From an uncultured Candidatus Saccharibacteria bacterium (lineage in GTDB: Bacteria > Patescibacteriota > Minisyncoccia > Phycocordibacterales > UBA9973), in NCBI GenBank assembly GCA_964412965.1, contig CAYPQU010000003.1:2788-66787 (forward strand): DNA of 64,000 nt, given 5' to 3'. Numbering within the stretch: the first letter of the stretch is position 1; each line of letters starts with the position of its first letter. Below are positions 10,866 to 63,774 of the stretch, piece after piece. Made by a program: the position numbers and the translations under genes. Below the pieces are notes generated by a model that ran no database searches, was not told the DNA's origin, and was given only the letters and a program-made list of their open reading frames with translations.

Positions 10866-13085
10866 ATGACTAAGAAGTTACTTATTGTAGAGTCACCTTC
10901 AAAAGCTAAGACGATAGAAAAATACCTAGACGGAGAATACACAGTTCGAGCTTCTGTTGGACACATCAGAGATTTGCCAAAATCAAACAAAAACGCCATT
11001 AATATAGAAAATGGTTTTGTTCCTAATTATGAAATTTCAAAGGGTAAAGAAAAAGTGGTTTACGAACTAAAAACTCTTGCCGAAAAAGCCGACGAGGTGA
11101 TGCTTGCAACAGACCCTGACCGAGAAGGAGAAGCTATTTCTTGGCACCTAAAAGACATTTTAGATACTGATAAAAAAATTAAAGCTCCAATCAAAAGAGT
11201 AGCCTTTCATGAAATTACAAAAGAAGCTATTATAGAAGCTTTACAAAACCCTCGTGATATTGACTTAAATCTAGTTAAAGCACAGGAAGCAAGACGCGTT
11301 CTCGACAGATTAGTTGGATATGATTTGTCTGGGATAATTTGGAAAAAAGTTAGATATGGTTTGTCCGCGGGAAGAGTTCAATCCCCTGCCCTCCGAATCA
11401 TCATGGAAAGAGAAAGGGAAATTAGAGCTTTTATCCCTGAAAAGTATTGGACAATTGAAGGAATTTTTAATCTAAATAAAAATAAAATTAAACTAACCTG
11501 TACAGAGGAACCTCGAGACGAAAAAATCGTAAAAGAAATCTTATCTCTAGGTCAAAAAGAAAAATGGATTATTACTGACATCAAATCCTCTGAACAAAAG
11601 AGACAGCCTAGACCTCCATTTACCACATCCACTTTGCAACAAACCGCAAGCACTAGACTCGGATTCTCTCCTTCTAGAACAATGCAAATTGCACAAAGAT
11701 TGTACGAAGCTGGTCTTATTACCTACATGCGTACCGACAGTACCAATCTAAGCACACAAGCACAAAATCAAATCATTTCGCTCGTTGAAAAAAAATATGG
11801 AAAAGAATATGCCGAAAAGCATTTCTATAAAGCTAAATCTAAAAATGCCCAGGAAGCTCACGAAGCTATCAGACCTACTCACATTGATAACATGTCAGTC
11901 GGAGCTACCGAAGAACAGAAGAAGCTCTATAGACTTATCTGGGAAAGAGCAGTCTCTTCTCAAATGACAGATGCTAAACTTTTAAAATCAAAAATCGTAG
12001 CCAATATAGAACATGGCCAAATACCTGACTTTACAGCTAATGGATCAAAGATTTTATTCCCCGGATGGCTTGCTTGCGACAGTGACGCAAGCGGTGATGA
12101 TATCATACTTCCTGAAGTAAAAAAGGGGCAGGCAATTGACCTTATTGAAATCAGCGAAAATGAAAAATCTACCGAACCACCAAATAGATACACCGAGGCT
12201 GGACTAGTCAAAGAACTAGAATCTAGAGACATAGGAAGACCTTCGACTTACGCGAGTATCATCAAAACACTAGAAGATAGAGGTTATGTAAGAAAAGAAG
12301 GACGCACTCTTTTCCCTACTGATACCGGAGATGTCGTTTCAAGTTTTCTAGAAAATAATTTCTATAACTATATTAGCGACAATTTTACCGCAGACATGGA
12401 AGACAAGTTAGACGATATCTCCAACGGCAAAAGAGATTACGTGAAAACTTTAAAAGATTTTTATGGACCGTTCTTAAGTGACATCAAAGAGAAAGAGAAA
12501 TTAGCAAAAGCTACTAACATAGAAGACGCACCCGAGAATATTAAATGCCCAAAATGTGGCGGTGACATGACTGTGAAGCTTGCCAGAAACGGCAAATTCT
12601 ATTCATGTAAAAATTATCCTGATTGCAGCGGTGCTCTCACCCTAGACGGCAAAGAACTCGAGGGTCCAAAAGAAACCGGAGAAATGTGTCCAACTTGTGG
12701 AGATAAAAAGGGTAAAAACGGTGGAGGAAAACTAGTTGTCAGAGAAGGTAGGTTTGGTTCGTTTATCTCGTGTTCTCGTTACCCTAAATGTAAATTTATT
12801 AAACAAGATGAAGAAGAATTAAAAAAGAAAATGACTGAAATTACCTGCCCTGTTTGCAATAATGGAAAAATGATGGAGAGACGAGGAAGATTCGGAATTT
12901 TTTATTCATGTAGTAATTATCCTGATTGTAAAAATGCAATTAAAGCAAAACCAACTGGTAATATCTGCCCCTTCTGTGACGCCCTGATGATGAATGGCAC
13001 AAAAACTATTCCCGAAAGATGTAGTAATAACAAGTGTCCAAATCATCGACCAGATAAGCTTGAAAAAGAAAAAAGAAGTTCTTAA
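10866..13085 (+). CDS. topA: DNA topoisomerase I with C-terminal zinc-ribbon repeats
   Basis: MTKKLLIVESPSKAKTIEKYL Toprim start and four CxxC...CxxC zinc ribbons at the C-terminus. The ORF opens at 10830, but 10866 is the likelier start. Confidence 0.95.
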   Translation: MTKKLLIVESPSKAKTIEKYLDGEYTVRASVGHIRDLPKSNKNAINIENGFVPNYEISKGKEKVVYELKTLAEKADEVMLATDPDREGEAISWHLKDILDTDKKIKAPIKRVAFHEITKEAIIEALQNPRDIDLNLVKAQEARRVLDRLVGYDLSGIIWKKVRYGLSAGRVQSPALRIIMEREREIRAFIPEKYWTIEGIFNLNKNKIKLTCTEEPRDEKIVKEILSLGQKEKWIITDIKSSEQKRQPRPPFTTSTLQQTASTRLGFSPSRTMQIAQRLYEAGLITYMRTDSTNLSTQAQNQIISLVEKKYGKEYAEKHFYKAKSKNAQEAHEAIRPTHIDNMSVGATEEQKKLYRLIWERAVSSQMTDAKLLKSKIVANIEHGQIPDFTANGSKILFPGWLACDSDASGDDIILPEVKKGQAIDLIEISENEKSTEPPNRYTEAGLVKELESRDIGRPSTYASIIKTLEDRGYVRKEGRTLFPTDTGDVVSSFLENNFYNYISDNFTADMEDKLDDISNGKRDYVKTLKDFYGPFLSDIKEKEKLAKATNIEDAPENIKCPKCGGDMTVKLARNGKFYSCKNYPDCSGALTLDGKELEGPKETGEMCPTCGDKKGKNGGGKLVVREGRFGSFISCSRYPKCKFIKQDEEELKKKMTEITCPVCNNGKMMERRGRFGIFYSCSNYPDCKNAIKAKPTGNICPFCDALMMNGTKTIPERCSNNKCPNHRPDKLEKEKRSS

Positions 13086-13102
13086 ACTTCTTTAAGAACT
13101 TA

Positions 13103-13196
13103 AGTTTTTGTGAGGCGCAGTGATGTTTGCCGAGCACGGCAAACCACGAGCCGGGGTCGCAAAAATTTCGAGCGACGGCGAGAAATTATTTGTGAC
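13103..13196. repeat. GC-rich ~94-nt insert (E1) flanked by ~102-bp direct duplications of the topA 3' end and terminator (13000-13102 and 13197-13298)
   Basis: The two flanks are identical apart from one mismatch. The insert (cggggtcgc...gcgacggcg...ttgtgacc) resembles the insert at 23645-23732. Confidence 0.6.
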
Positions 13197-13352
13197 CAAA
13201 AACTATTCCCGAAAGATGTAGTAATAACAAGTGTCCAAATCATCGACCAGATAAGCTTAAAAAAGAAAAAAGAAGTTCTTAAACTTCTTTAAGAACTTGA
13301 TAAAAAAAACTCCTAATTTAATACAGAACTTTAGAATAAAATAATAAAGTTT

Positions 13353-23437: not shown

Positions 23438-23496
23438 CAGTGGAAAAATTAAAATTTTTCTGCTAGTATAATAAAGTGGATTTACAAAACAATATG

Positions 23497-23578
23497 CCCA
23501 GGTGGCGGAATTGGTATACGCGCTAGTCTTAGGAACTAGTGGAGCAATCCTTGGAGGTTCAAGTCCTCTCCTGGGCAC
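23497..23578 (+). tRNA. tRNA-Leu (anticodon TAG), long variable arm
   Basis: Acceptor gcccagg/cctgggc, anticodon loop ctTAGga, T-loop ggttcaagtcc. Confidence 0.8.
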
Positions 23579-23644
23579 ACGTAATGTGCAAAAAAGAAGC
23601 AATGTTATTGCTTCTTTTTTAAGGAGAGGACTTGAAAGACGGAC

Positions 23645-23732
23645 TCCGACGAAGGCCGGAGGAGTCGGGGTCGCGAGTTTTGCCAGCAGACAAAAACTTG
23701 TGACCAAGTCCTTTTGGTCGAAAACGAGAAGC
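23645..23732. repeat. GC-rich ~88-nt insert (E2) flanked by 76-bp direct duplications of the tRNA-Leu 3' end and terminator (23569-23644 and 23733-23808)
   Basis: The duplicated flank includes ctcctgggcacacg and the hairpin gaagcaatgttattgcttc followed by T-run. The insert shares cggggtcgc...ttgtgacca with E1. Confidence 0.6.
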
Positions 23733-23894
23733 TCCTGGGCACACGAAGTGTTCAAAAATGAAGCAATGTTATTGCTTCTTTTTTAAGGAGAGGACTTGAA
23801 AGACGGATCTTCGATCCTTAACGAAATTAATCGAACGAGAAGCTGAATGATTATATCTTATTGCTTATTCTATCAAAATATAGTATACTTTCCC

Positions 23895-43091: not shown

Positions 43092-43399
43092 ATGTTTTCT
43101 ATTTAACTAATAATTTTAATAATTATCCAAGAAAATAAAAATAAGTCTTTGAGAAATACCTTGCGCAGAGCGACGGCTCGAGCAGAGAAATTTTTCAACA
43201 GAAAAATATTCGTGCATTTCGAGAAGAGCTTATTTTTGCTTTCTCTTAAGAAAAAAACTCGTTATTTAATAATTATCCCAAGAAAGCAAGAATAAGTCTT
43301 TGAGAAATGACTAGGGAGCGCGACGGCGCGAGCTCGAGGAATTTTTCAGCAGAAAAATATCCGTGCATTTCGAGAAGAGCTTATTTTTGCTTTCCCTTA

Positions 43400-43600
43400 A
43401 CAAAAAACTCGTCCTTGTATAACAATCGACTGATTGCTACATAAGGACGAGTTTCTCTCCTCGTGGTACCACCTTAATTCCCCTAAAAGGGCTTATTTTA
43501 CAGCTTTTACGGGCTTACCCGCTAAGTTCTAATCTCCTTTTGTGGATTTCTTCTTAGTGCTCCGAGGTGATGTCCTCTTCAACGCTTCTATATATATATT
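43400..43600 (-). promoter_or_regulatory. T-box riboswitch leader (Ile specifier) upstream of ileS
   Basis: In the sense strand: a stem I region containing ggacATCacc (ATC = Ile codon), the T-box sequence aattaaggtggtaccacgagg, and the terminator ctcgtcctt...aaggacgag followed by tttttt. Confidence 0.7.
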
Positions 43601-44534: not shown

Positions 44535-44810
44535 GTTTTTATTATATCATCATATTGTTTAACGACAACCCTTAATTATCAAATCCCCCCTTTTATACAA
44601 ACCAAACCTATATAATTAATTCCATCCATCACCTTACGCGATCGCTTGCAGTGATGTAAAATATCAAGATCTCAATTTCATAAGTTAAATCCATGTAAAA
44701 AACAACAGCATTTCTATCCATTACTTTACGCGATAGCGTAAAGTAATGGATAGAAATATTATTATTCTGCTATATCCCAACTTCCCTGGGTCTGGCCCAA
44801 GGGAACTGGA

Positions 44811-44936
44811 CTAGGTGAACAGACACAAGGTAACAAATCTGAGTGAATAGGCCTATGTGAACGGACCTAGGTGAACAGACTTAGGTGAACAAACTTAAGA
44901 GAACAAACTCAGGTGGGCAGACCTAAGGGAACGAAC
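44811..44936. repeat. Nine tandem degenerate 14-bp repeats (consensus cTAGGTGAACAGAC)
   Basis: Read directly: ctaggtgaacagac, ctatgtgaacggac, ctaggtgaacagac, ttaggtgaacaaac, ttaagagaacaaac, tcaggtgggcagac, ctaagggaacgaac and others. Confidence 0.7.
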
Positions 44937-55893: not shown

Positions 55894-56084
55894 TGTCTAT
55901 CTAAGAGTATCACAAATCCTTCTCGGCTTCAATCCTGTTAGAAAAAAGTCGCCCCGAGGTGACTGAAGCACTCAATTGCTATTGAGGGCGTTTTCTAACG
56001 GGATCAATAAATTCATCTAAATATCTTTAAGGTCAAAAATTCCAAATTACAAAACCTAAAAAATCACAAAACTCAATCTACAAG

Positions 56085-57089
56085 CTACCTTGTAAAACTG
56101 CGGGAGGAACGAAAGCCCAAAGGGTCGTACTGAAACGAAAAACCACAGACATTGACAACGCGCTTGCCACTGCTGGGATCCAAAGTCGAAAAGACAAGAC
56201 GGGAACCGCTTTTGGTAGAGAGCCATATCCAGCCATCTTTATCTAAGTGTTTGCCTGTTTCTTCAAAGTATTTCTTGGATAGTATGAGATATTCTTCAAG
56301 GGATAGAGTGGTATCTAGAGGGACATCTTGACCTTTGATGTTTAGTGTTTGAGCTAGTTCTGGGTGGTCTTTCAAGTTTTGAGTGTTGTGAGTGAGGATG
56401 AGACGGATTTTGTCTTGATTTTGACTTTGGGCTTTCTTGAAGCTTCCACCTTCTTTAAAGTTATCACTTTCCCAATACTTTGCGTCCTTCATCTTCTTAG
56501 CTAGGTCTGGTAAGTCGGTGGTAGGAGGGATTAAGATGATTTCATTGAATCCGTGAGCTTCTATCTCTTTCTCGATTTCATCTAGATTATTGTTCCATAT
56601 CTCTTTGATTTGTTCTTCAAAGTCATCTGCAACTTCTAGATTGTGTTTCTTGTAGAAAGATATGTATTCGTTTAGCTTTTGTTCAATGTTTAGAGTGATT
56701 TGTTCGGTTTTTTCTACCTTACCGTCCTTGTTGATGAAGGTGTAGATGGAGGAGATTTTTTCGGTGTGAGAAGGTAGAGGTTCACCACTATCTAGTCTTT
56801 CTTTCATCTTCTCTACTCTATCCATCATACTGTTTAGCTTTTCTTGCATAGTTACCTTTCTTTCTTCTCCTTTTCCTTCTTTTTCATCTTCTTGATCGTT
56901 AAATAATCCTTGTGATATGGATTCTTTATATTCTTCTATGGCTTCTTGTATTGGGAGTTTAAGTGATTGTATTTTACCTTCTAATATACTCCTCAATTCT
57001 TCTTGAGATTTCTCTGGTTTTGGAACACTTTTTTCTTGGGTTTGAGTGTTCTCTTTTTTGCTTTTGAATAGGTTGGTGAGAGATTCCAT
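56085..57089 (-). CDS. Hypervariable-C-terminus paralog 1 (~330-aa family; candidate DGR-type variable protein with a CLec/FGE-like C-terminal end)
   Basis: N-terminal 40 aa nearly identical to the paralogs at 57112 and 60240. The C-terminus ...WLSTKSGSRLVFS...LGFRSSRSFTR is GC-rich and divergent. Confidence 0.7.
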   Translation of the reverse strand: MESLTNLFKSKKENTQTQEKSVPKPEKSQEELRSILEGKIQSLKLPIQEAIEEYKESISQGLFNDQEDEKEGKGEERKVTMQEKLNSMMDRVEKMKERLDSGEPLPSHTEKISSIYTFINKDGKVEKTEQITLNIEQKLNEYISFYKKHNLEVADDFEEQIKEIWNNNLDEIEKEIEAHGFNEIILIPPTTDLPDLAKKMKDAKYWESDNFKEGGSFKKAQSQNQDKIRLILTHNTQNLKDHPELAQTLNIKGQDVPLDTTLSLEEYLILSKKYFEETGKHLDKDGWIWLSTKSGSRLVFSTLDPSSGKRVVNVCGFSFQYDPLGFRSSRSFTR

Positions 57090-57111
57090 GATAAAAGGTT
57101 ATAAGTACAAG

Positions 57112-58104
57112 CTACTTCATATAACTACAGGAGGAACGGAACCCCAAACCGCCACCCTGAGCCGAAAAGCCACGGGCACCGACAAGGCGCTTGCGGTCGC
57201 CGAGATCCCAATACGAATAGACGAGACGAGCACCAGATTTGGTTGCAAGCCAAGTATAGTTATCTTCATCTAGGTGGTGACCTGTTTCTTCAAAATATTT
57301 CTTGGAAAGGATAAGGTATTCTTCGAGAGAAAGAGTCTTGTCTAGGGGAACGTCTTGTCCTTTGGTATTTAGAGTTTTAGCTAGTTCGGGGTGATCTTTC
57401 AGATTTTGGACTTTGTGAGTGAGAATTATGCGAGTCTTGTCTTGATTTTGACTTTGAGCTTTCTTAAAACTTCCACCCTGTTTGAAATTACCACTTTCCC
57501 AGTATTTTGTTTCTTTCATTTTCTCTGCTAAATCTGATAGATCTGTGGTAGGGGGAATTAGCAGGATTTCATTGAATCCGTGTCCCTCTATCTGTTTCAG
57601 TATGTCGTCTGTGTTTTCTTCCCAAATATCTCTGATATCTTCTTCAAAATTATCGGGTATTTCTACACCATGCGAATCGTAAAAAGAAATGTATTCGTTT
57701 AACTTTTGTTCGATATTTAATGTGATTTGTTCGACTTTCCTTGTGTCGGGGAAAGTGTAGGAGGATTCGATTGAATCGGTAAGTGAGGGTAGTATTTCAT
57801 TGCTGTCTAGCTTGGCTTTCATCTTCTCTACTCTATCTAGCATACTATTGATCTTTTCTTGCATAACTGTCTTTCTTTCTTCACCTTTTCCTTCTTCTTC
57901 ATCTTCTTGATCGTTAAATAATCCTTGTGATATGGATTCTTTGTATTCTTCTATGGCTTCTTGTATTGGGAGTTTAAATGATTGTATTTTACCTTCTAAT
58001 ATACTCCTCAATTCTTCTTGAGATTTCTCTGGTTTTGGAACACTTTTTTCTTGGGTTTGAGTGTTCTCTTTTTTGCTTTTGAATAGGTTGGTGAGGGATT
58101 CCAT
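57112..58104 (-). CDS. Hypervariable-C-terminus paralog 2
   Basis: Same family. Its 3' ~170 nt are identical to the 3' end of the AAA-fusion gene (61255-61420). Confidence 0.7.
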   Translation of the reverse strand: MESLTNLFKSKKENTQTQEKSVPKPEKSQEELRSILEGKIQSFKLPIQEAIEEYKESISQGLFNDQEDEEEGKGEERKTVMQEKINSMLDRVEKMKAKLDSNEILPSLTDSIESSYTFPDTRKVEQITLNIEQKLNEYISFYDSHGVEIPDNFEEDIRDIWEENTDDILKQIEGHGFNEILLIPPTTDLSDLAEKMKETKYWESGNFKQGGSFKKAQSQNQDKTRIILTHKVQNLKDHPELAKTLNTKGQDVPLDKTLSLEEYLILSKKYFEETGHHLDEDNYTWLATKSGARLVYSYWDLGDRKRLVGARGFSAQGGGLGFRSSCSYMK

Positions 58105-58124
58105 GGGGAAATTATAGCATAATA

Positions 58125-60209
58125 TTATATATCTTTTAAGTGTTCTTTTAATAGTTCTGACAACACTAATGGTAAATTCTTTACATTTTCAACAACCAGA
58201 GCGTTTGGAGAATAAGTCGAAATGACAGCACCCCCTGAGTTGGTAATACCTAATCCGACGACAACAATCCCTTTATTTCGAAGAACTTTCAAGATAGACT
58301 GAACCCGAGAGGGATTGTCACTTTCTCCATCGGTCATAACTATAACAATTTTCTTCAACATTCCTTCTTCTATTTTCTTTTCTACTTCTGGGTCTAGTTT
58401 GTCTTCAATACTTTCAAGACAAAAAAAGTCCGTAGTGGAGCCATTGATATCATAAAGTTTATTTAAGATATTTATCCTTTCTGCCTCACCGAGATCTTTT
58501 GACATAATTTTAATTGGTTTTTTGTCTTCGTTGTTGCCTGCAAAAGAATATATCTCTGATTTTACTTCGAGTGGTTTATCCATATTCATCTTCTCCTCTT
58601 CTGTCATTTCCGCAAATTCTTTCAAGGTTTCCATCATAAGAACTGCGGACTTCCTTTGCTCTTCAGCATTTTCTCCCCCCATAGATCCCGAGCGATCACA
58701 GACAAGAGTTATCTCAACTTCACCAAATCTATCTCCTTTTTTTTCTTTTAACTCTATGTCTTCCCAAACTCGAGGTTCCAAATTACCAGACTTAACTTCC
58801 GCGACAAGCTGACTAGGATCTACCAAATAATCCCCTTCCTCTGTTGGATATTTGGGGACAAAAGACTTTTGGGTTCTTTTAGAAATTATCCGAAAGAAGA
58901 GATTTTTCATTTCTTCCAGCACTTCTACGCCGGTATTCTCATTCACCATACTGCGAACCTGCTCTGCAACCTTTCGATAATTTTGCAAACTTTCTTTAGT
59001 AACTCCTATCTTTTCAGCATAATCTTCATCTGCCTTGTCTTTGTTTTCTTTACAGTTTTCTTTGTTTTTCTTCCATTCTTCAAATGCTTTCTCTATATCT
59101 TCTATCGAAATAGCTTCAGGGAATTTCTTCTCGACCTCACTATACTCTTTTTCAAAAATTTTATTTGGATCTTTTTCTTCTTCTCTATCACCACCTTTTC
59201 CTTTCTTTTCTTTTTGTTTTTTGTCTTTACCGTTTTTTGATTCCCCTTCTCCTTCTTCTTCTACACTTTCATTTCCATCATTTTTATCTTCTCTGTCTTG
59301 TTCTTCTGATTTTTGATCATCTTTCTCTCCTCCGTTGTTTTCTTCTTTTGAATCTTGAGAATCTTTTTTATTTCCCCCTTCTTTTTCTTCTAGTTCACCT
59401 TCTCCGCTCTGCCCTTTACCCTCAGAATTTTCTTGACCGCTATCTTCTTCTTTTTTATTATTCCTATCTTCTATATCTTTCTCCAAAAGACTTTGCACTC
59501 TTGGCCAAATATATTTGTCTTGCAATTCCCATCTCAATGACATTGGAGTTTCAGGATTTGTCATGATATCCATCAGACCCTTCACTTTTTCTATTTCTAC
59601 AATCTTCTGTCTTACATCATTTCCCACTATGCACTTTTCATTTTTTACTCTTGCTTCCCGTAGAAGAGCCTCACAAATTTGAATATGTCTTGGTTGTGAA
59701 GTAAAATCTATTTCTTTAAACAAGTTTTCTCTATACATCTTGTCTTCTATTTCTTTCATGCCTTCATTCGTTCTCGATATCACAGATCTATTTTCACGAA
59801 TATCGGCAATGCAATTATCCATTAACCCAAAAGCTTTAGATTTTTTATTTTTTTCTAAATAATTCTTAAAAGATTTTTCCCCATTTTTTTCTTTTAATAC
59901 TTGGATTTTCTCTGAGAAATGTTCCACCTCGTGCAAGGTTGCAAAAATCGTTTTCTCATCAGAAAACCCTGCTTCTTTATAAAACATTGGATTCACATAA
60001 ATAGTATTGTTTTCAAGGTTAAAAGCAAAAGTATTCAAACCGGCAGGAGAAGGTTCTATCTTTATTTTTCCTTTTGAGTAGTGTTCAAAAAAATCTCTGT
60101 TTTTCTCCACAAAGTCAAAAGCTTCGTTATTTACACCTTCACCCTCAAAAGATCTAGGTTTCGCAACCTTTTCTTCTTTTTTTATTTCTTTTAATCTAAA
60201 TTTTTCCAT
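58125..60209 (-). CDS. von Willebrand factor A (vWA) domain protein with an acidic low-complexity linker
   Basis: C-terminal vWA with MIDAS motif DRSGSMGG and a later TDG motif (VMTDGESDN). The middle is E/K/D-rich. Confidence 0.75.
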   Translation of the reverse strand: MEKFRLKEIKKEEKVAKPRSFEGEGVNNEAFDFVEKNRDFFEHYSKGKIKIEPSPAGLNTFAFNLENNTIYVNPMFYKEAGFSDEKTIFATLHEVEHFSEKIQVLKEKNGEKSFKNYLEKNKKSKAFGLMDNCIADIRENRSVISRTNEGMKEIEDKMYRENLFKEIDFTSQPRHIQICEALLREARVKNEKCIVGNDVRQKIVEIEKVKGLMDIMTNPETPMSLRWELQDKYIWPRVQSLLEKDIEDRNNKKEEDSGQENSEGKGQSGEGELEEKEGGNKKDSQDSKEENNGGEKDDQKSEEQDREDKNDGNESVEEEGEGESKNGKDKKQKEKKGKGGDREEEKDPNKIFEKEYSEVEKKFPEAISIEDIEKAFEEWKKNKENCKENKDKADEDYAEKIGVTKESLQNYRKVAEQVRSMVNENTGVEVLEEMKNLFFRIISKRTQKSFVPKYPTEEGDYLVDPSQLVAEVKSGNLEPRVWEDIELKEKKGDRFGEVEITLVCDRSGSMGGENAEEQRKSAVLMMETLKEFAEMTEEEKMNMDKPLEVKSEIYSFAGNNEDKKPIKIMSKDLGEAERINILNKLYDINGSTTDFFCLESIEDKLDPEVEKKIEEGMLKKIVIVMTDGESDNPSRVQSILKVLRNKGIVVVGLGITNSGGAVISTYSPNALVVENVKNLPLVLSELLKEHLKDI

Positions 60210-60239
60210 GTAATCTGTTGTATCAAAAAAAGCTACAAG

Positions 60240-61232
60240 CTACTTCATATAACTGCGGGAGGAACGAAAGCCCAAACGGCCGCTCCGATACGAAAAAGCA
60301 TCGGCATCGACACAGCGCCGGTCACGGCCGGGATCCCAATCCGAACAGACAAGACGGGAACCGCTTTCTGTCGAGAGCCAAGTCGCACCGTATTCATCTA
60401 AGTGCTTGCCTGTTTCTTCAAAGTATTTCTTGCATAGTATGAGGTATTCTTCAAGAGACAGAGTGATGTCTAAGGGGACATCTTCTCCTTTGATGTTTAA
60501 GGTTTGAGCTATTTCGGGATGGTCTTTCAAGTTTTGAGTGTTGTGAGTGAGGATGAGACGTACTTTGTCTTGATTTTGACTTTGAGCTTTTTCGAAACTT
60601 CCACCTTCTTTGAAATTATCACCTTCCCAATACTTTGCCTCCTTCATCTTCTCTGCTAAATCTGATAGATCTGTGGTTGGTGGAATTAGCAGGATTTCAT
60701 TGAATCCATGTTCTGTCATCTGCTTTTTAATGTCATTGATATTTGCTTCCCAGATATCTTTGATGTCTTCTTCGAAATTATCGGGTATTTCTACACCATG
60801 TGAATCATAGAAAGAAATGTATTCGTTTAACTTTTGTTCGATATTTAATGTGATTTGTTCGACTTTCCTTGTGTCGGGGAAAGTGTAGGAGGATTCGATT
60901 GATTCGGTAAGTGAGGGTAGTATTTCATTGCTGTCTAGCTTGGTTTTCATTTTTTCTACTTTGTCTAACATGCTATTTAACTTCTTTTGCATAGACATCT
61001 TTCTTTCTTCTCCTTTTCCTTCTTCTTCGTCTTCTTGATCATCAAACTTACCATCTTCTAATGATGTTTGATATTCTTTGATTAATTCTTCGATTGGAGT
61101 TTTAAGTGATTGTATTTTACCTTCTAATATACCCCTCAGTTCTTCTTGAGATTTCTCTGGTTTTGGAACACTTTTTTCTTGAGTGTTCGTGTTCTCTTTT
61201 TTGCTTTTGAATAGGTTGGTGAGAGATTCCAT
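60240..61232 (-). CDS. Hypervariable-C-terminus paralog 3
   Basis: Same family. C-terminus ...WLSTESGSRLVCSDWDPGRDRRCVDADAFSYRSGRLGFRSSRSYMK. Confidence 0.7.
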   Translation of the reverse strand: MESLTNLFKSKKENTNTQEKSVPKPEKSQEELRGILEGKIQSLKTPIEELIKEYQTSLEDGKFDDQEDEEEGKGEERKMSMQKKLNSMLDKVEKMKTKLDSNEILPSLTESIESSYTFPDTRKVEQITLNIEQKLNEYISFYDSHGVEIPDNFEEDIKDIWEANINDIKKQMTEHGFNEILLIPPTTDLSDLAEKMKEAKYWEGDNFKEGGSFEKAQSQNQDKVRLILTHNTQNLKDHPEIAQTLNIKGEDVPLDITLSLEEYLILCKKYFEETGKHLDEYGATWLSTESGSRLVCSDWDPGRDRRCVDADAFSYRSGRLGFRSSRSYMK

Positions 61233-61254
61233 GATAAAAGGTTATAAGTACAAG

Positions 61255-63774
61255 CTACTTCATATAACTACAGGAGGAACGGAACCCCAAACCGCCACCC
61301 TGAGCCGAAAAGCCACGGGCACCGACAAGGCGCTTGCGGTCGCCGAGATCCCAATACGAATAGACGAGACGAGCACCAGATTTGGTTGCAAGCCAAGTAT
61401 AGTTATCTTCATCTAGGTGGTGACCTGTTTCTTCAAAATATTTCTTGGAAAGGATAAGGTATTCTTCGAGGGATAGTGTTTTATCTAAGGGTACATCTTG
61501 TCCTTTGATATTTAGAGTTTTGGTAAGTTCGGGGTGATCTTTTAGATTTTGGACTTTGTGGGTGAGTACAATACGGACTTTGTCTTGGTTTTGACTTTGA
61601 GCTTTTTCGAAACTTCCACCTTCTTCGAAATTATCACCTTCCCAATACTTTGCCTCCTTCATCTTCTCTTTCATCTTCTCTGCTAAATCAGGCAAATCTG
61701 TGGTTGGTGGAATTAGCAGGATTTCATTGAATCCATATTCCTCTATTTGCTTCTCCAGGTCATCAATATTTGCTTCCCAGATATCTTTGATATCTTCTTC
61801 GAAATTATCGGGTATTTCTACACCATGCGAATCGTAAAAAGAAATGTATTCGTTTAACTTTTGTTCGATATTTAATGTGATTTGTTCGGTTTTCTCAATT
61901 TGGCCGTCTTGGTTGGTAAAAGTATATGTGGTTTTGATTTCTTCTGTTTGTGATTTTTTATCCTTCCCATATATTTTTTCAAATCTCCTACCTAGTCCAT
62001 TCAAAAATTCATCTTTATTTGAATCTATCCCTTCTTTAAGCAAGACTTCTGCTTTTAGTTTTAATAACTCTTCTCTTTTATTAAATGGATCTAGCTCTGC
62101 TACTTCTTTTAGGGTTAAGTGCTTTATATCCCCTGATTTATCCCTCAACTCTTCGGTGGCATTTTCTCCTCGAAGAGATTTAATAGCATTAAATCTGAAA
62201 ATATCTTCCGGTAGGTTTAATTCTTCAGCAGAAAGAGTTGTAAGAAAACCTTTTGACGCTAGAATCTTCGCAGCCAAAATCCTATCTTCTTTTGAATATT
62301 CGTCAAAAGTAAGGGCAGTTTTTAATCTTTGGTCTAAAAATTCAGAGAAAGATACTGTTTCTTTCTTTGTTTGCTTTTCTATGGTCCAAGAAGAAAAGAT
62401 GGCTTCCACTGTTCCTTGTGTCATTACAAATTTTTTAAGAGAATGATATTTTCCACTAGCATCCATAGCCCCTACATTCTGTGCTAGATTTTTGTCTGTC
62501 TCGTTTGTGTATGATTCTTGAATTTCAGACATAGCCTTACACAAATTTGGTAGTGTTGTATTTAAATCATAAAAAGACATATCTATGGATCCATCTTTAT
62601 TCATAAGTCTGGCAAGCATTATGTCATATGCTTCATCTGAAGGATTATATTCTATTTTAACATTGTTTTGTTCAAATTCACGAGTTATCTCTGGAGGTAA
62701 TTCTTGCCTTTCTGGATTTTTTTCTGATTTTAAGTTTGCTGTAAAAATCATTTGAAAACCTGGTTTTATGTCTACTATTCCATTGCCTACAATATTCACT
62801 TTGTCTCCTACTTTGGCATTAAATACCCCTTTAATGAAAACCATCTGTTCTTTTGGTAATGCAGTAAATTCATCAAAGATAACGACTTTACCCTCAGTCA
62901 TTGCTTTAGCAAGAGGCCCATATATCTCCACTGTTTCAATGGCTCCACTCTCTCCGCTTGGTCTTAACCCTGTTTTTCCCCAAACATTTGCTTCTCTTGT
63001 CTGCGGGTTACAAAAAACCATCTCGGGCGTTTTACCAGTAAAGTGTTCAGAGGCAAATCTAGCCAAAGAGGTCTTTCCTGTTCCCGTTGGTCCGTGCAAT
63101 AACATTGGTTTGCTTGTAAGCATTCTGTCTCCGATGGCATCCAAATCTTTTTCCACTTCTGGGGTGATGCAGATGTGCCCAGGCTGGCTTAAATTTTTCT
63201 TGTATTCTACCAACTTCGCTTGTTGTAATGTATTTTGATCAACACCTTCTAAAAAGTTTTCTTTTTCAATAATTTCATTTTTTACTGAGTCTAATATTTT
63301 TTCATTTCTTTCTTTTGTTTCTTTAGAACATTTGGGATCTAATATTTCAAAAATCTTATGAATCCTATAATCTTTGAGTTTAGAAATTTCTTCCAGTGAT
63401 TCTTGAACTTTGCTTATTTGAGGATTTTCTTTTCTTATAGAAGAATAATCAATTTTAGAAAGATTATTTAAAAGTTCTTTTTCGTACTCTTTTTTTTGAT
63501 TTTTTAAAATTTTCTTTGATTCAGAAAAACCACCATTTTCCTCTATACTAAAAGAGGATGCTTTGTCTTCTAAGTCAACCAAATCATCTTTATAATGCTT
63601 TTCGTAAATTTTTTTCTTAAAAGCGTCGAGATCTGACCCCCCGCCATTTTTCGTAATTCCAAATTCGTTTTTAATAGTTTTCTTTAATTCTAATCGATCC
63701 TCAAAAACCTTATGAAAATTAAGATTTTTTTCACCCTCGCCTTCTTTTGGGTTAAAATTAGGTTTGTTTTCCAT
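61255..63774 (-). CDS. MoxR/AAA_5-type AAA+ ATPase fused at its C-terminus to a fourth copy of the hypervariable-paralog domain
   Basis: Walker A LLHGPTGTGKTS and Walker B VVIFDEF at about residues 225-300. Residues ~520-839 align with the 330-aa paralogs, including the variable end. Confidence 0.75.
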   Translation of the reverse strand: MENKPNFNPKEGEGEKNLNFHKVFEDRLELKKTIKNEFGITKNGGGSDLDAFKKKIYEKHYKDDLVDLEDKASSFSIEENGGFSESKKILKNQKKEYEKELLNNLSKIDYSSIRKENPQISKVQESLEEISKLKDYRIHKIFEILDPKCSKETKERNEKILDSVKNEIIEKENFLEGVDQNTLQQAKLVEYKKNLSQPGHICITPEVEKDLDAIGDRMLTSKPMLLHGPTGTGKTSLARFASEHFTGKTPEMVFCNPQTREANVWGKTGLRPSGESGAIETVEIYGPLAKAMTEGKVVIFDEFTALPKEQMVFIKGVFNAKVGDKVNIVGNGIVDIKPGFQMIFTANLKSEKNPERQELPPEITREFEQNNVKIEYNPSDEAYDIMLARLMNKDGSIDMSFYDLNTTLPNLCKAMSEIQESYTNETDKNLAQNVGAMDASGKYHSLKKFVMTQGTVEAIFSSWTIEKQTKKETVSFSEFLDQRLKTALTFDEYSKEDRILAAKILASKGFLTTLSAEELNLPEDIFRFNAIKSLRGENATEELRDKSGDIKHLTLKEVAELDPFNKREELLKLKAEVLLKEGIDSNKDEFLNGLGRRFEKIYGKDKKSQTEEIKTTYTFTNQDGQIEKTEQITLNIEQKLNEYISFYDSHGVEIPDNFEEDIKDIWEANIDDLEKQIEEYGFNEILLIPPTTDLPDLAEKMKEKMKEAKYWEGDNFEEGGSFEKAQSQNQDKVRIVLTHKVQNLKDHPELTKTLNIKGQDVPLDKTLSLEEYLILSKKYFEETGHHLDEDNYTWLATKSGARLVYSYWDLGDRKRLVGARGFSAQGGGLGFRSSCSYMK

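Follow-up and report, generated by a model that had tools for sequence, protein, structure and literature searches.

Variable repeats of a diversity-generating retroelement at an AAA ATPase–vWA locus without a local cassette in a Patescibacteria genome

Diversity-generating retroelements (DGRs) alter the binding tip of a protein through error-prone reverse transcription. Those of the candidate phyla radiation (CPR) have architecture B3 in 90% of cases, and one class of their targets, 'UVR4', matches Midasin/AAA ATPases (Wu et al. 2018, PMC5758913). CPR DGRs belong to clade 2, their targets are reported to carry neither a signal peptide nor a membrane segment, and targets that are remote from (not adjacent to) the retroelement are missed by contig-based surveys (Roux et al. 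2021, PMC8144416). A related use of diversification is described in the ternary conflict systems built on a von Willebrand factor A (vWA) protein and a MoxR ATPase (VMAP), where DGR-diversified formylglycine-generating enzyme (FGE)-sulfatase (FGS) domains are thought to bind invader molecules, and the template may be close by or at another place in the genome (Kaur et al. 2020, PMC7159879; Dore et al. 2024, PMC10907252). Here we describe a minus-strand locus at positions 56085–63774 of a 64,000-nt stretch (hereafter the window) of contig CAYPQU010000003.1 from an uncultured Candidatus Saccharibacteria bacterium (Patescibacteriota; assembly GCA_964412965.1). An initial annotation, made from the sequence alone, proposed that four gene ends in this locus are DGR variable repeats, and the evidence assembled below supports them as genuine DGR targets in a Paceibacteria (Patescibacteria/CPR) genome.

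The locus is a CPR DGR target of the AAA/midasin type, a known kind of system. It shares with the described CPR DGRs (PMC5758913, PMC8144416) the host group, a P-loop/AAA_5 target with a C-terminal variable repeat, and templates that each serve several targets; its correspondence to UVR4 is suggested by the common AAA/midasin annotation rather than by alignment. Relatives of the locus encode Avd on the strand opposite the reverse transcriptase (RT) with the template beside it, which resembles architecture B3 by description rather than by formal mapping. Unlike the CPR DGRs, the locus in the window lacks RT, Avd and template alike, and its repeats number four, of which three are distinct. It is unusual locally in lacking the cassette and in having multiplied targets. 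Variable repeats standing away from any RT or template are also a property of remote-target DGRs (PMC8144416), and at the present locus the action would presumably be in trans. The locus resembles the VMAP systems in its genetic linkage of a DGR-diversified FGE-sulfatase-like domain with an AAA ATPase of the MoxR class and a vWA protein. VMAP systems, however, have multicellular cyanobacteria and gammaproteobacteria as hosts, and their FGS domain is mostly joined to the vWA protein, whereas in the window the domain is joined to the AAA ATPase and also occurs in paralogs that stand alone, and the genome is that of a reduced CPR bacterium. A third 'VMAP' component did not come to light, although no search aimed at a VMAP component was made.

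From the open reading frame (ORF) map and Pfam matches, the minus-strand gene order is the AAA_5 ATPase fusion, paralog c3, the vWA protein, paralogs c2 and c1, and then ftsE, ftsX and pyrG. The C-terminal third of the AAA fusion gene is termed c4. The genes of the locus are as follows, with the C-type lectin fold abbreviated as CLec.

61255..63774, minus strand: AAA_5 ATPase fusion of MoxR/midasin type, 839 aa, carrying the paralog core and, at its C-terminus, a CLec-fold domain with repeat c4 at the end (ORF; Pfam AAA_5, 2.6e-12; core homologous to the paralogs; fusion homologs in 33 loci)
60240..61232, minus strand: paralog c3, 330 aa, N-terminal helices and a CLec/FGE-sulfatase-fold domain ending in a variable repeat
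58125..60209, minus strand: vWA-domain partner protein, 694 aa, with a long acidic lysine-rich linker (Pfam VWA, 7.4e-9; adjoins the RT in relatives, a conserved position; Logan contig L034 is 100% identical over 58066–60549)
57112..58104, minus strand: paralog c2, 330 aa, variable repeat identical to that of c4 (ORF; same as database entry P0001, NCBI source)
56085..57089, minus strand: paralog c1, 334 aa, the last gene ahead of ftsE (ORF; same as P0093; strain orthologs in L032 and L040)

The three small paralogs and the C-terminal third of the AAA protein had been described as sharing near-identical N-termini and a common core. The nucleotide identity of c1, c2 and c3 is indeed 91–100% across their first ~135 nt, and a ~230-aa C-terminal core is common to all four proteins, the AAA fusion included. 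The core of each variable end is 102 nt long and lies 15–116 nt above the gene end, within the last ~40 codons. These cores have a GC content of 52–62% against 34.8% for the window, as expected from the description of GC-rich ends in an AT-rich genome. Across c1, c2 and c3, 66 core columns are invariant and only one of them carries a coding-strand A, while A makes up 49.5% of the 620 invariant columns upstream (binomial p=2e-18). Both halves of the adenine observation in the initial annotation, the near absence of A from invariant columns at the gene ends and the conservation of A-containing columns further 5', are thus borne out. Its statement that about 27 columns vary among all four bases was too strong: among the three sequences 36 columns vary, and three different bases occur in 7. 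The three coordinate ranges that it aligned were also mutually 1–2 nt out of register.

The distribution of changes over codon positions provides a second signature. Comparison of c1 with c3 over the 34 codons of the core gives 22 differences, of which codon position 1 has 8, position 2 has 14 and position 3 has none; in the 102 codons upstream, positions 1 or 2 account for 17 differences and position 3 for 24 (p=5e-6 and 6e-4). Overall identity of the repeats is 60–73%, and some upstream blocks are equally divergent. The repeat is abnormal by its pattern of change and not by its overall divergence. An extension of the repeat in the 5' direction into the variable 'D(K/E)(D/Y)G..W' codons was considered and rejected, since c1 and c3 show third-position differences in the codons that lie between. 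A nucleotide profile built from the template and variable repeats of relatives (nhmmer) finds exactly four sites in the window (E<=5e-24), which fall into two framework classes; class II differs from class I at 7 of 34 third positions.

56100..56213, minus strand: variable repeat of c1, class I framework (nhmmer template plus variable-repeat profile, E=1.5e-24; codon-position and adenine statistics)
57127..57240, minus strand: variable repeat of c2, class II framework, with the 3' end CCTCCTGTAG instead of CCTCCCGCAG (nhmmer profile match)
60255..60368, minus strand: variable repeat of c3, class I framework (nhmmer, E=8.6e-26)
61270..61383, minus strand: variable repeat of c4, identical to the c2 repeat and to its ortholog in strain contig L037 (nhmmer profile match)

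Related loci supply the retroelement that the window lacks. A scan of species-representative genomes with the AAA protein yielded 33 loci, most of them from metagenome-assembled genomes (MAGs) titled as Paceibacteria-type or other Patescibacteria. A DGR-type RT with the motifs GNxTSQ...YxRY(N/A)DD is present in 15 of the 33, placed downstream of the AAA fusion in every case except L025, where it is upstream. An Avd homolog adjoins the RT in most RT-bearing loci (tblastn); in L003, Pfam identifies the RT as RVT_1 and the small reverse-strand gene as bAvd-like (57.8 bits vs a 40-bit cut-off). The usual order is the AAA fusion with its variable repeat, template repeat, bAvd (reverse strand), RT, vWA gene, and paralog with its variable repeat. 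In 12 loci an adenine-rich template repeat of 108–140 nt was found, and 82–100% of its mismatches to the gene ends fall at template adenines. Each of these 12 templates pairs with the end of the AAA fusion plus one or more paralog ends, and the cassettes of the relatives are complete, canonical DGRs. The window repeats align without gaps to both the template and the variable repeats of the relatives. With the relatives' templates serving as a proxy for the cognate template of the window, an A in at least 4 of 8 templates at a given column predicts variation of that column in the window (c1 vs c3, odds ratio 35, p=5e-10; c1/c2/c3, p=1.5e-7). Two further loci depart from the usual order. L021 (10001–15928) represents a second RT-less lineage with a different variable-repeat class, arranged as AAA fusion with variable repeat, paralog, vWA, paralog, prfB-like gene and ftsE; its two paralog ORFs are of equal length and have identical N- and C-terminal sequences. 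In L033 (10001–11556), a Portnoybacteria MAG and the closest species-representative match, the AAA fusion is frameshifted and truncated and no RT is present, and this looks like a decaying copy of the locus.

These comparisons bear on the alternative that no retroelement was involved and the gene ends reflect ordinary paralog divergence, shaped by diversifying selection on a binding surface and biased codon usage. Repeat identity that is no lower than in some upstream blocks, and the occurrence of third-position C/T transitions among the variable columns, would both be compatible with it. The single A among 66 invariant columns, the lack of any third-position change among the 22 differences between c1 and c3, and the gap-free homology to repeats that adjoin an adenine-rich template and an RT in 12–15 relatives all argue the other way, and we regard this explanation as extremely improbable.

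Structural modeling agrees with the sequence patterns. For the C-terminal domain, which the initial annotation likened to CLec/FGE-sulfatase folds, a high-confidence model (pLDDT 97) shows an FGE-sulfatase/C-type-lectin fold with matches to TvpA, Mtd and TaqVP, and in the predicted structure the variable repeat sits within this fold at the target C-terminus. The same fold and the same placement of the variable repeat in the last ~40 residues are found in Mtd of a Bordetella phage (1yu0), TvpA of Treponema denticola (2y3c) and TaqVP of Thermus aquaticus (5vf4); these proteins also share template codons of the AAY type, which for the present locus would follow from the predicted template given below. 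On this model the variable repeat is predicted to form the C-terminal ligand-binding part of the domain. Pfam does not recognize the C-terminal domain, and inspection of the paralogs by eye revealed no signal peptide or membrane segment. With PADLOC, the paralog and the vWA protein have no match and the AAA fusion has only weak P-loop matches. The window holds a MoxR-class AAA+ ATPase with an adjoining vWA gene, and the pair is kept in relatives; the best score with the Pfam model bpMoxR is under its cut-off, and the MoxR subfamily is therefore left unassigned. By analogy with known systems, our best guess is that the diversified proteins may serve the ATPase/vWA pair inside the cell, as a ligand sensor or adaptor that can be diversified. 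In the vWA protein itself, residues ~250–400 (window 58900–59500) form a linker of ~150 residues in which acidic residues, lysine and glycine abound; the region has strong GC and AT skew, and the 1-kb segment 59001–60000 overlapping it has a GC skew of -0.445. Taken together, the adenine and codon signature, the cassettes in syntenic relatives, the collinear repeats and the fold all agree with the original proposal of DGR variable repeats.

Target sites of DGRs are expected to be marked at the 3' end of the variable repeat, and the locus carries two candidate marks there. First, CCCGCAGTT is the end of the homology between template and variable repeat in relatives, where the templates read CCCGCCGTT; c1 and c3 retain the CCCGCAGTT 3' end, and c2 and c4 read CCTGTAGTT. 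Second, a 'TAG CTTGTA' flank directly follows all four copies. The initial annotation had noted this conserved flank (a stop codon followed by tacaagcta), which proves to be the first heptamer of an element found family-wide after variable repeats: a tandem heptamer, GTARYTT GTARYTT GR (GTARYTTGTARYTTGR), occurs 10–25 nt downstream of every variable repeat of the DGR family, whether or not the stop codon overlaps it. GTARYTTGTARYTTGR has 19 exact matches in 12 loci, and each match that was checked directly follows a variable repeat; among the matches checked in the fetched loci, none was seen away from variable repeats. The elements in the window and examples from relatives are listed below.

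56073..56088, minus strand: heptamer element after c1 (GTAGCTT GTAGATT GA), including the TAG stop; 1 mismatch to GTAGCTTGTAGCTTGA; conserved family-wide
57100..57115, minus strand: degenerate element after c2 (GTAGCTTGTACTTATA); 4 mismatches, unmatched in a search at <=3 mismatches
60228..60243, minus strand: heptamer element after c3 (GTAGCTT GTAGCTT TT); 2 mismatches
61243..61258, minus strand: degenerate element after c4, sequence same as after c2; 4 mismatches
Heptamer elements in relatives: L001 8061–8076 and 12765–12780; L003 12423–12438 and 17112–17127; L004 12435–12450, 13515–13530 and 18304–18319

The tandem heptamer may be a target-recognition signal, and from these sequences c1 and c3 would be competent targets and c2 and c4 a duplicated, probably decayed one. 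P0005, a c2-like allele of a more distant strain, does vary, and class II may therefore have its own template instead.

The exact repeats within the locus bear on both the number of targets and the reliability of the assembly.

57046..57327, no strand: 282-nt exact repeat, copy 1, comprising the c2 end, a spacer of 22 nt and the initial 44 nt of c1 (sequence identity)
61189..61470, no strand: 282-nt exact repeat, copy 2, comprising the c4 end, the spacer and the c3 start (sequence identity)

Because c2 and c4 are identical over these 282 nt, the locus holds three distinct variable repeats and not the four originally counted. The paralogs as a whole are mosaics of blocks, each block with a different nearest relative, a structure that indicates gene conversion; the 282-nt tract in turn reflects a recent conversion or duplication. 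The tract is also a likely assembly breakpoint, as strain contig L037 departs from the window precisely at its edge. Mis-joins through this repeat and through the near-identical gene starts could have produced part of the observed number and order of paralogs. Consistent with such an artefact, L040 and L041 have a single paralog between vWA and ftsE, other orders occur (vWA-paralog-vWA in L043, 3–3535; L042 vs L045), and many related contigs terminate in the region. The joins in the window are nevertheless corroborated piece by piece: L034 is 100% identical from the end of c3 through vWA to the start of c2, L032 confirms a c1-type 3' flank adjoining ftsE, and L037 confirms the AAA gene with its c4 end. 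Moreover, the repeats recur in independent assemblies and are real whatever their order. An artefactual arrangement is accordingly judged quite improbable, and even combined with the non-DGR explanations it would account for the data only with a low probability. The vWA-paralog-vWA order of L043, a more distant strain, suggests tandem amplification of a [vWA-paralog] unit.

The best explanation as a whole, and one that we consider probable, is that the four ends are DGR variable repeats driven in trans by a remote, active cassette. In the DGRs of the relatives, an error-prone RT copies the template RNA with its adenines randomized, and the resulting cDNA overwrites the repeats. A cassette elsewhere in the genome may act in the same way on c1 and c3, which would be recognized as targets by the CCCGCAGTT end and the tandem heptamers that both keep, the heptamers in a putative role. 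The c2/c4 repeat would be a recent duplicate whose 3' end is mutated and whose element has degraded, and its rewriting may have ceased. We infer that the RT and template are present in this genome and that homing occurs in trans.

Comparisons among strains provide evidence supporting such activity. First, c3 and its strain counterpart L040a differ at none of 34 third positions in the repeat and at 19 of 85 upstream (p=0.0015), with 19 differences at positions 1 or 2 in the repeat. More generally, the third positions of class I repeats are identical in c1, c3, L040a and L037b, and the adjoining 85–102 codons differ at 22–24% of third positions (p=0.0006–0.0015). Neutral differences are thus erased inside the repeat but not beside it, a pattern that repeated overwriting from a conserved template produces. 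Second, alleles P0095, P0096 and P0097, from three samples, have 13–18 differences in the 102-nt repeat and 20–32 in the other 903 nt (p=6e-6 to 4e-8); hypervariability of the repeat is also seen in cluster 3 of the species complex. Third, among eight class I repeats of the species complex 35 columns vary, and codon positions 1 or 2 account for 30 of these; A occurs in 28 of the variable columns and is more frequent than any other base in 17, and the 85 invariant columns hold 4 As. The template predicted from these eight repeats would read AGCGGTTCCCGTCTTGTCTATTCGAATTGGAATCCCAGCAATGACAAGCGCAATGTCAATGCCAATGATTTTTCGAATCAGAACGACAATTTGGGCTTTCGTTCCTCCCGC / ...TATTCGAATTGGAATCCCAGCAATGACAAGCGCAATGTCAATGCCAATGATTTTTCGAATCAGAACGACAATTTGGGCTTTCGTTCCTCCCGC and encode ...YSNWNPSNDKRNVNANDFSNQNDNLGFRSSR. 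Fourth, an RT is encoded next to a paralog within the species complex: in L045 (1237–1909) the RT starts 125 nt past paralog P0096, and the contig ends inside the RT. This RT is 99% identical to a full-length 337-aa RT, P0187, in which the motifs LGNITSQ and FFVRYNDD are intact, and L045 is 97% identical to L042 upstream. Either the cassette is laid out differently in this contig or the contig is a chimeric join. The spacer between its paralog and RT contains no template or Avd and is similar to what precedes the template in L003 (GGTTAGTATAAYCACAAG...).

Several observations weigh against an active cassette in trans. Neither an RT (YxDD motif scan; tblastn with the L003 RT) nor an Avd (tblastn with the L003 Avd) was found in the window, and no template was detected there by a degenerate pattern allowing 3 mismatches, by an adenine-biased self-BLAST, or by nhmmer, which at E<=10 gives the four repeats and no fifth; the absence of an RT and a template had been noted in the initial annotation. 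Strain contig L037, whose AAA gene is 99.7% identical to that of the window (9 mismatches), continues 4.1 kb past the window end with RF-1 and small genes and no RT, Avd or template. The template pattern was likewise unmatched in JGI metagenomes and IMG/VR, two collections that seem to be without this species. RT cluster P0187 has only Logan sources and no NCBI member, and the window proteins themselves are present as NCBI entries; it may accordingly be that the source MAG has no RT, or that a short contig bearing it was left out of the MAG. The L045 contig could be a chimeric join at the 3' flank common to the repeats. Finally, the c4 repeat is identical in the window and L037, P0004 has the same c1 repeat as the window, and the L040 ortholog departs from it at only 5 sites, so that no full homing event has taken place between those close strains. 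The check on strain variants proposed with the original prediction has in this way given a divided answer: P0095/P0096/P0097 and cluster 3 vary in the repeat, and the c4 comparison with L037 and the c1 comparison with P0004 show identity.

The place of the cassette module in relatives is occupied by c3 in the window, and the spacers between c4 and c3 and between c3 and vWA are only 22–30 nt, leaving no cassette remnant there. No RT lies beside the vWA locus in six contigs of the species complex (L032, L034, L037, L040, L041 and L042). Another of the 770 RT homologs, P0101, derives from an unrelated Hainich groundwater sample, and its contig carries no template.

The same observations raise the possibility that the repeats are fossils, written by a DGR in a lineage that has since lost its RT, Avd and template, with the inherited diversity reshuffled by recombination and gene conversion between paralogs. 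The missing cassette in the window and in the further 4.1 kb of L037, the RT cluster of the species complex without an NCBI-sourced member, the identity of c2 and c4 and their constancy in L037, and the identical c1 repeat in P0004 are all compatible with such a loss. The strongly mosaic paralogs and the 282-nt conversion tract fit the proposed reshuffling, and other lineages are RT-less or decaying (two identical paralog copies in L021; a frameshifted AAA gene in L033). However, class I third positions that are identical despite flanks differing at 22–24% need templated rewriting after the divergence of the paralogs and strains concerned, and alleles that are 94–97% identical differ chiefly in the repeat. 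An intact-type RT adjoins a paralog in the species complex, and since RT-bearing contigs are typically 1–5 kb and readily dropped in binning, the absence of an RT from the MAG is weak evidence. Loss of the cassette is on balance the less likely explanation. The initial annotation left the driver as elsewhere or lost; because an intact-type RT exists in the same species complex, 'elsewhere' is favored, in agreement with a remote cassette acting in trans.

A broader scenario joins these elements, and it is offered tentatively. The lineage may have excised the RT, Avd and template from a conserved AAA–vWA DGR locus and expanded the target paralogs, after which one of two routes would have been followed, with the heptamer pair as a new signal. 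Along the first route, a single remote cassette would serve the target array in trans via CCCGCAGTT and the GTARYTT heptamers, and c2/c4 would have escaped by mutating both. Along the second, the retroelement would be gone, and a frozen repertoire of DGR-written binding domains would be kept and reshuffled by gene conversion.

Elsewhere in the window, Rfam and tRNA scans identified four tRNAs and nothing else. Three pairs of short direct repeats spaced 150–200 nt apart are located at 13000–13298, 23568–23807 and 43105–43407 (102 nt at 99%, 76 nt at 95% and 72 nt at 93% identity). The pair near position 23.5 kb starts at the 3' end of tRNA-Leu (23496–23578) and includes a terminator-like hairpin. 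Positions 44794–44919 consist of imperfect 14-nt tandem units (GGTGAACAGAC-like) of repeat family D6.

Adenine-poor, GC-rich gene ends in an AT-rich genome can reveal DGR targets when no retroelement is present on the contig, and contig-based surveys miss precisely such remote or orphan targets (Roux et al. 2021). Two leads for further work are the conserved tandem heptamer after every variable repeat of this family and the natural occurrence of both intact (c1, c3) and degraded (c2, c4) target sites, which can be set against each other. Under either route of the tentative scenario, the heptamer pair would mark the target sites of CPR DGRs and be a signal not described before, and the second route would constitute a germline-style successor to an active hypermutation system. 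The locus also connects lectin-fold domains that a DGR has diversified with a cytoplasmic MoxR-AAA/vWA pair of reduced CPR genomes, in parallel with the proposed 'antigen sensor' conflict systems of multicellular bacteria.

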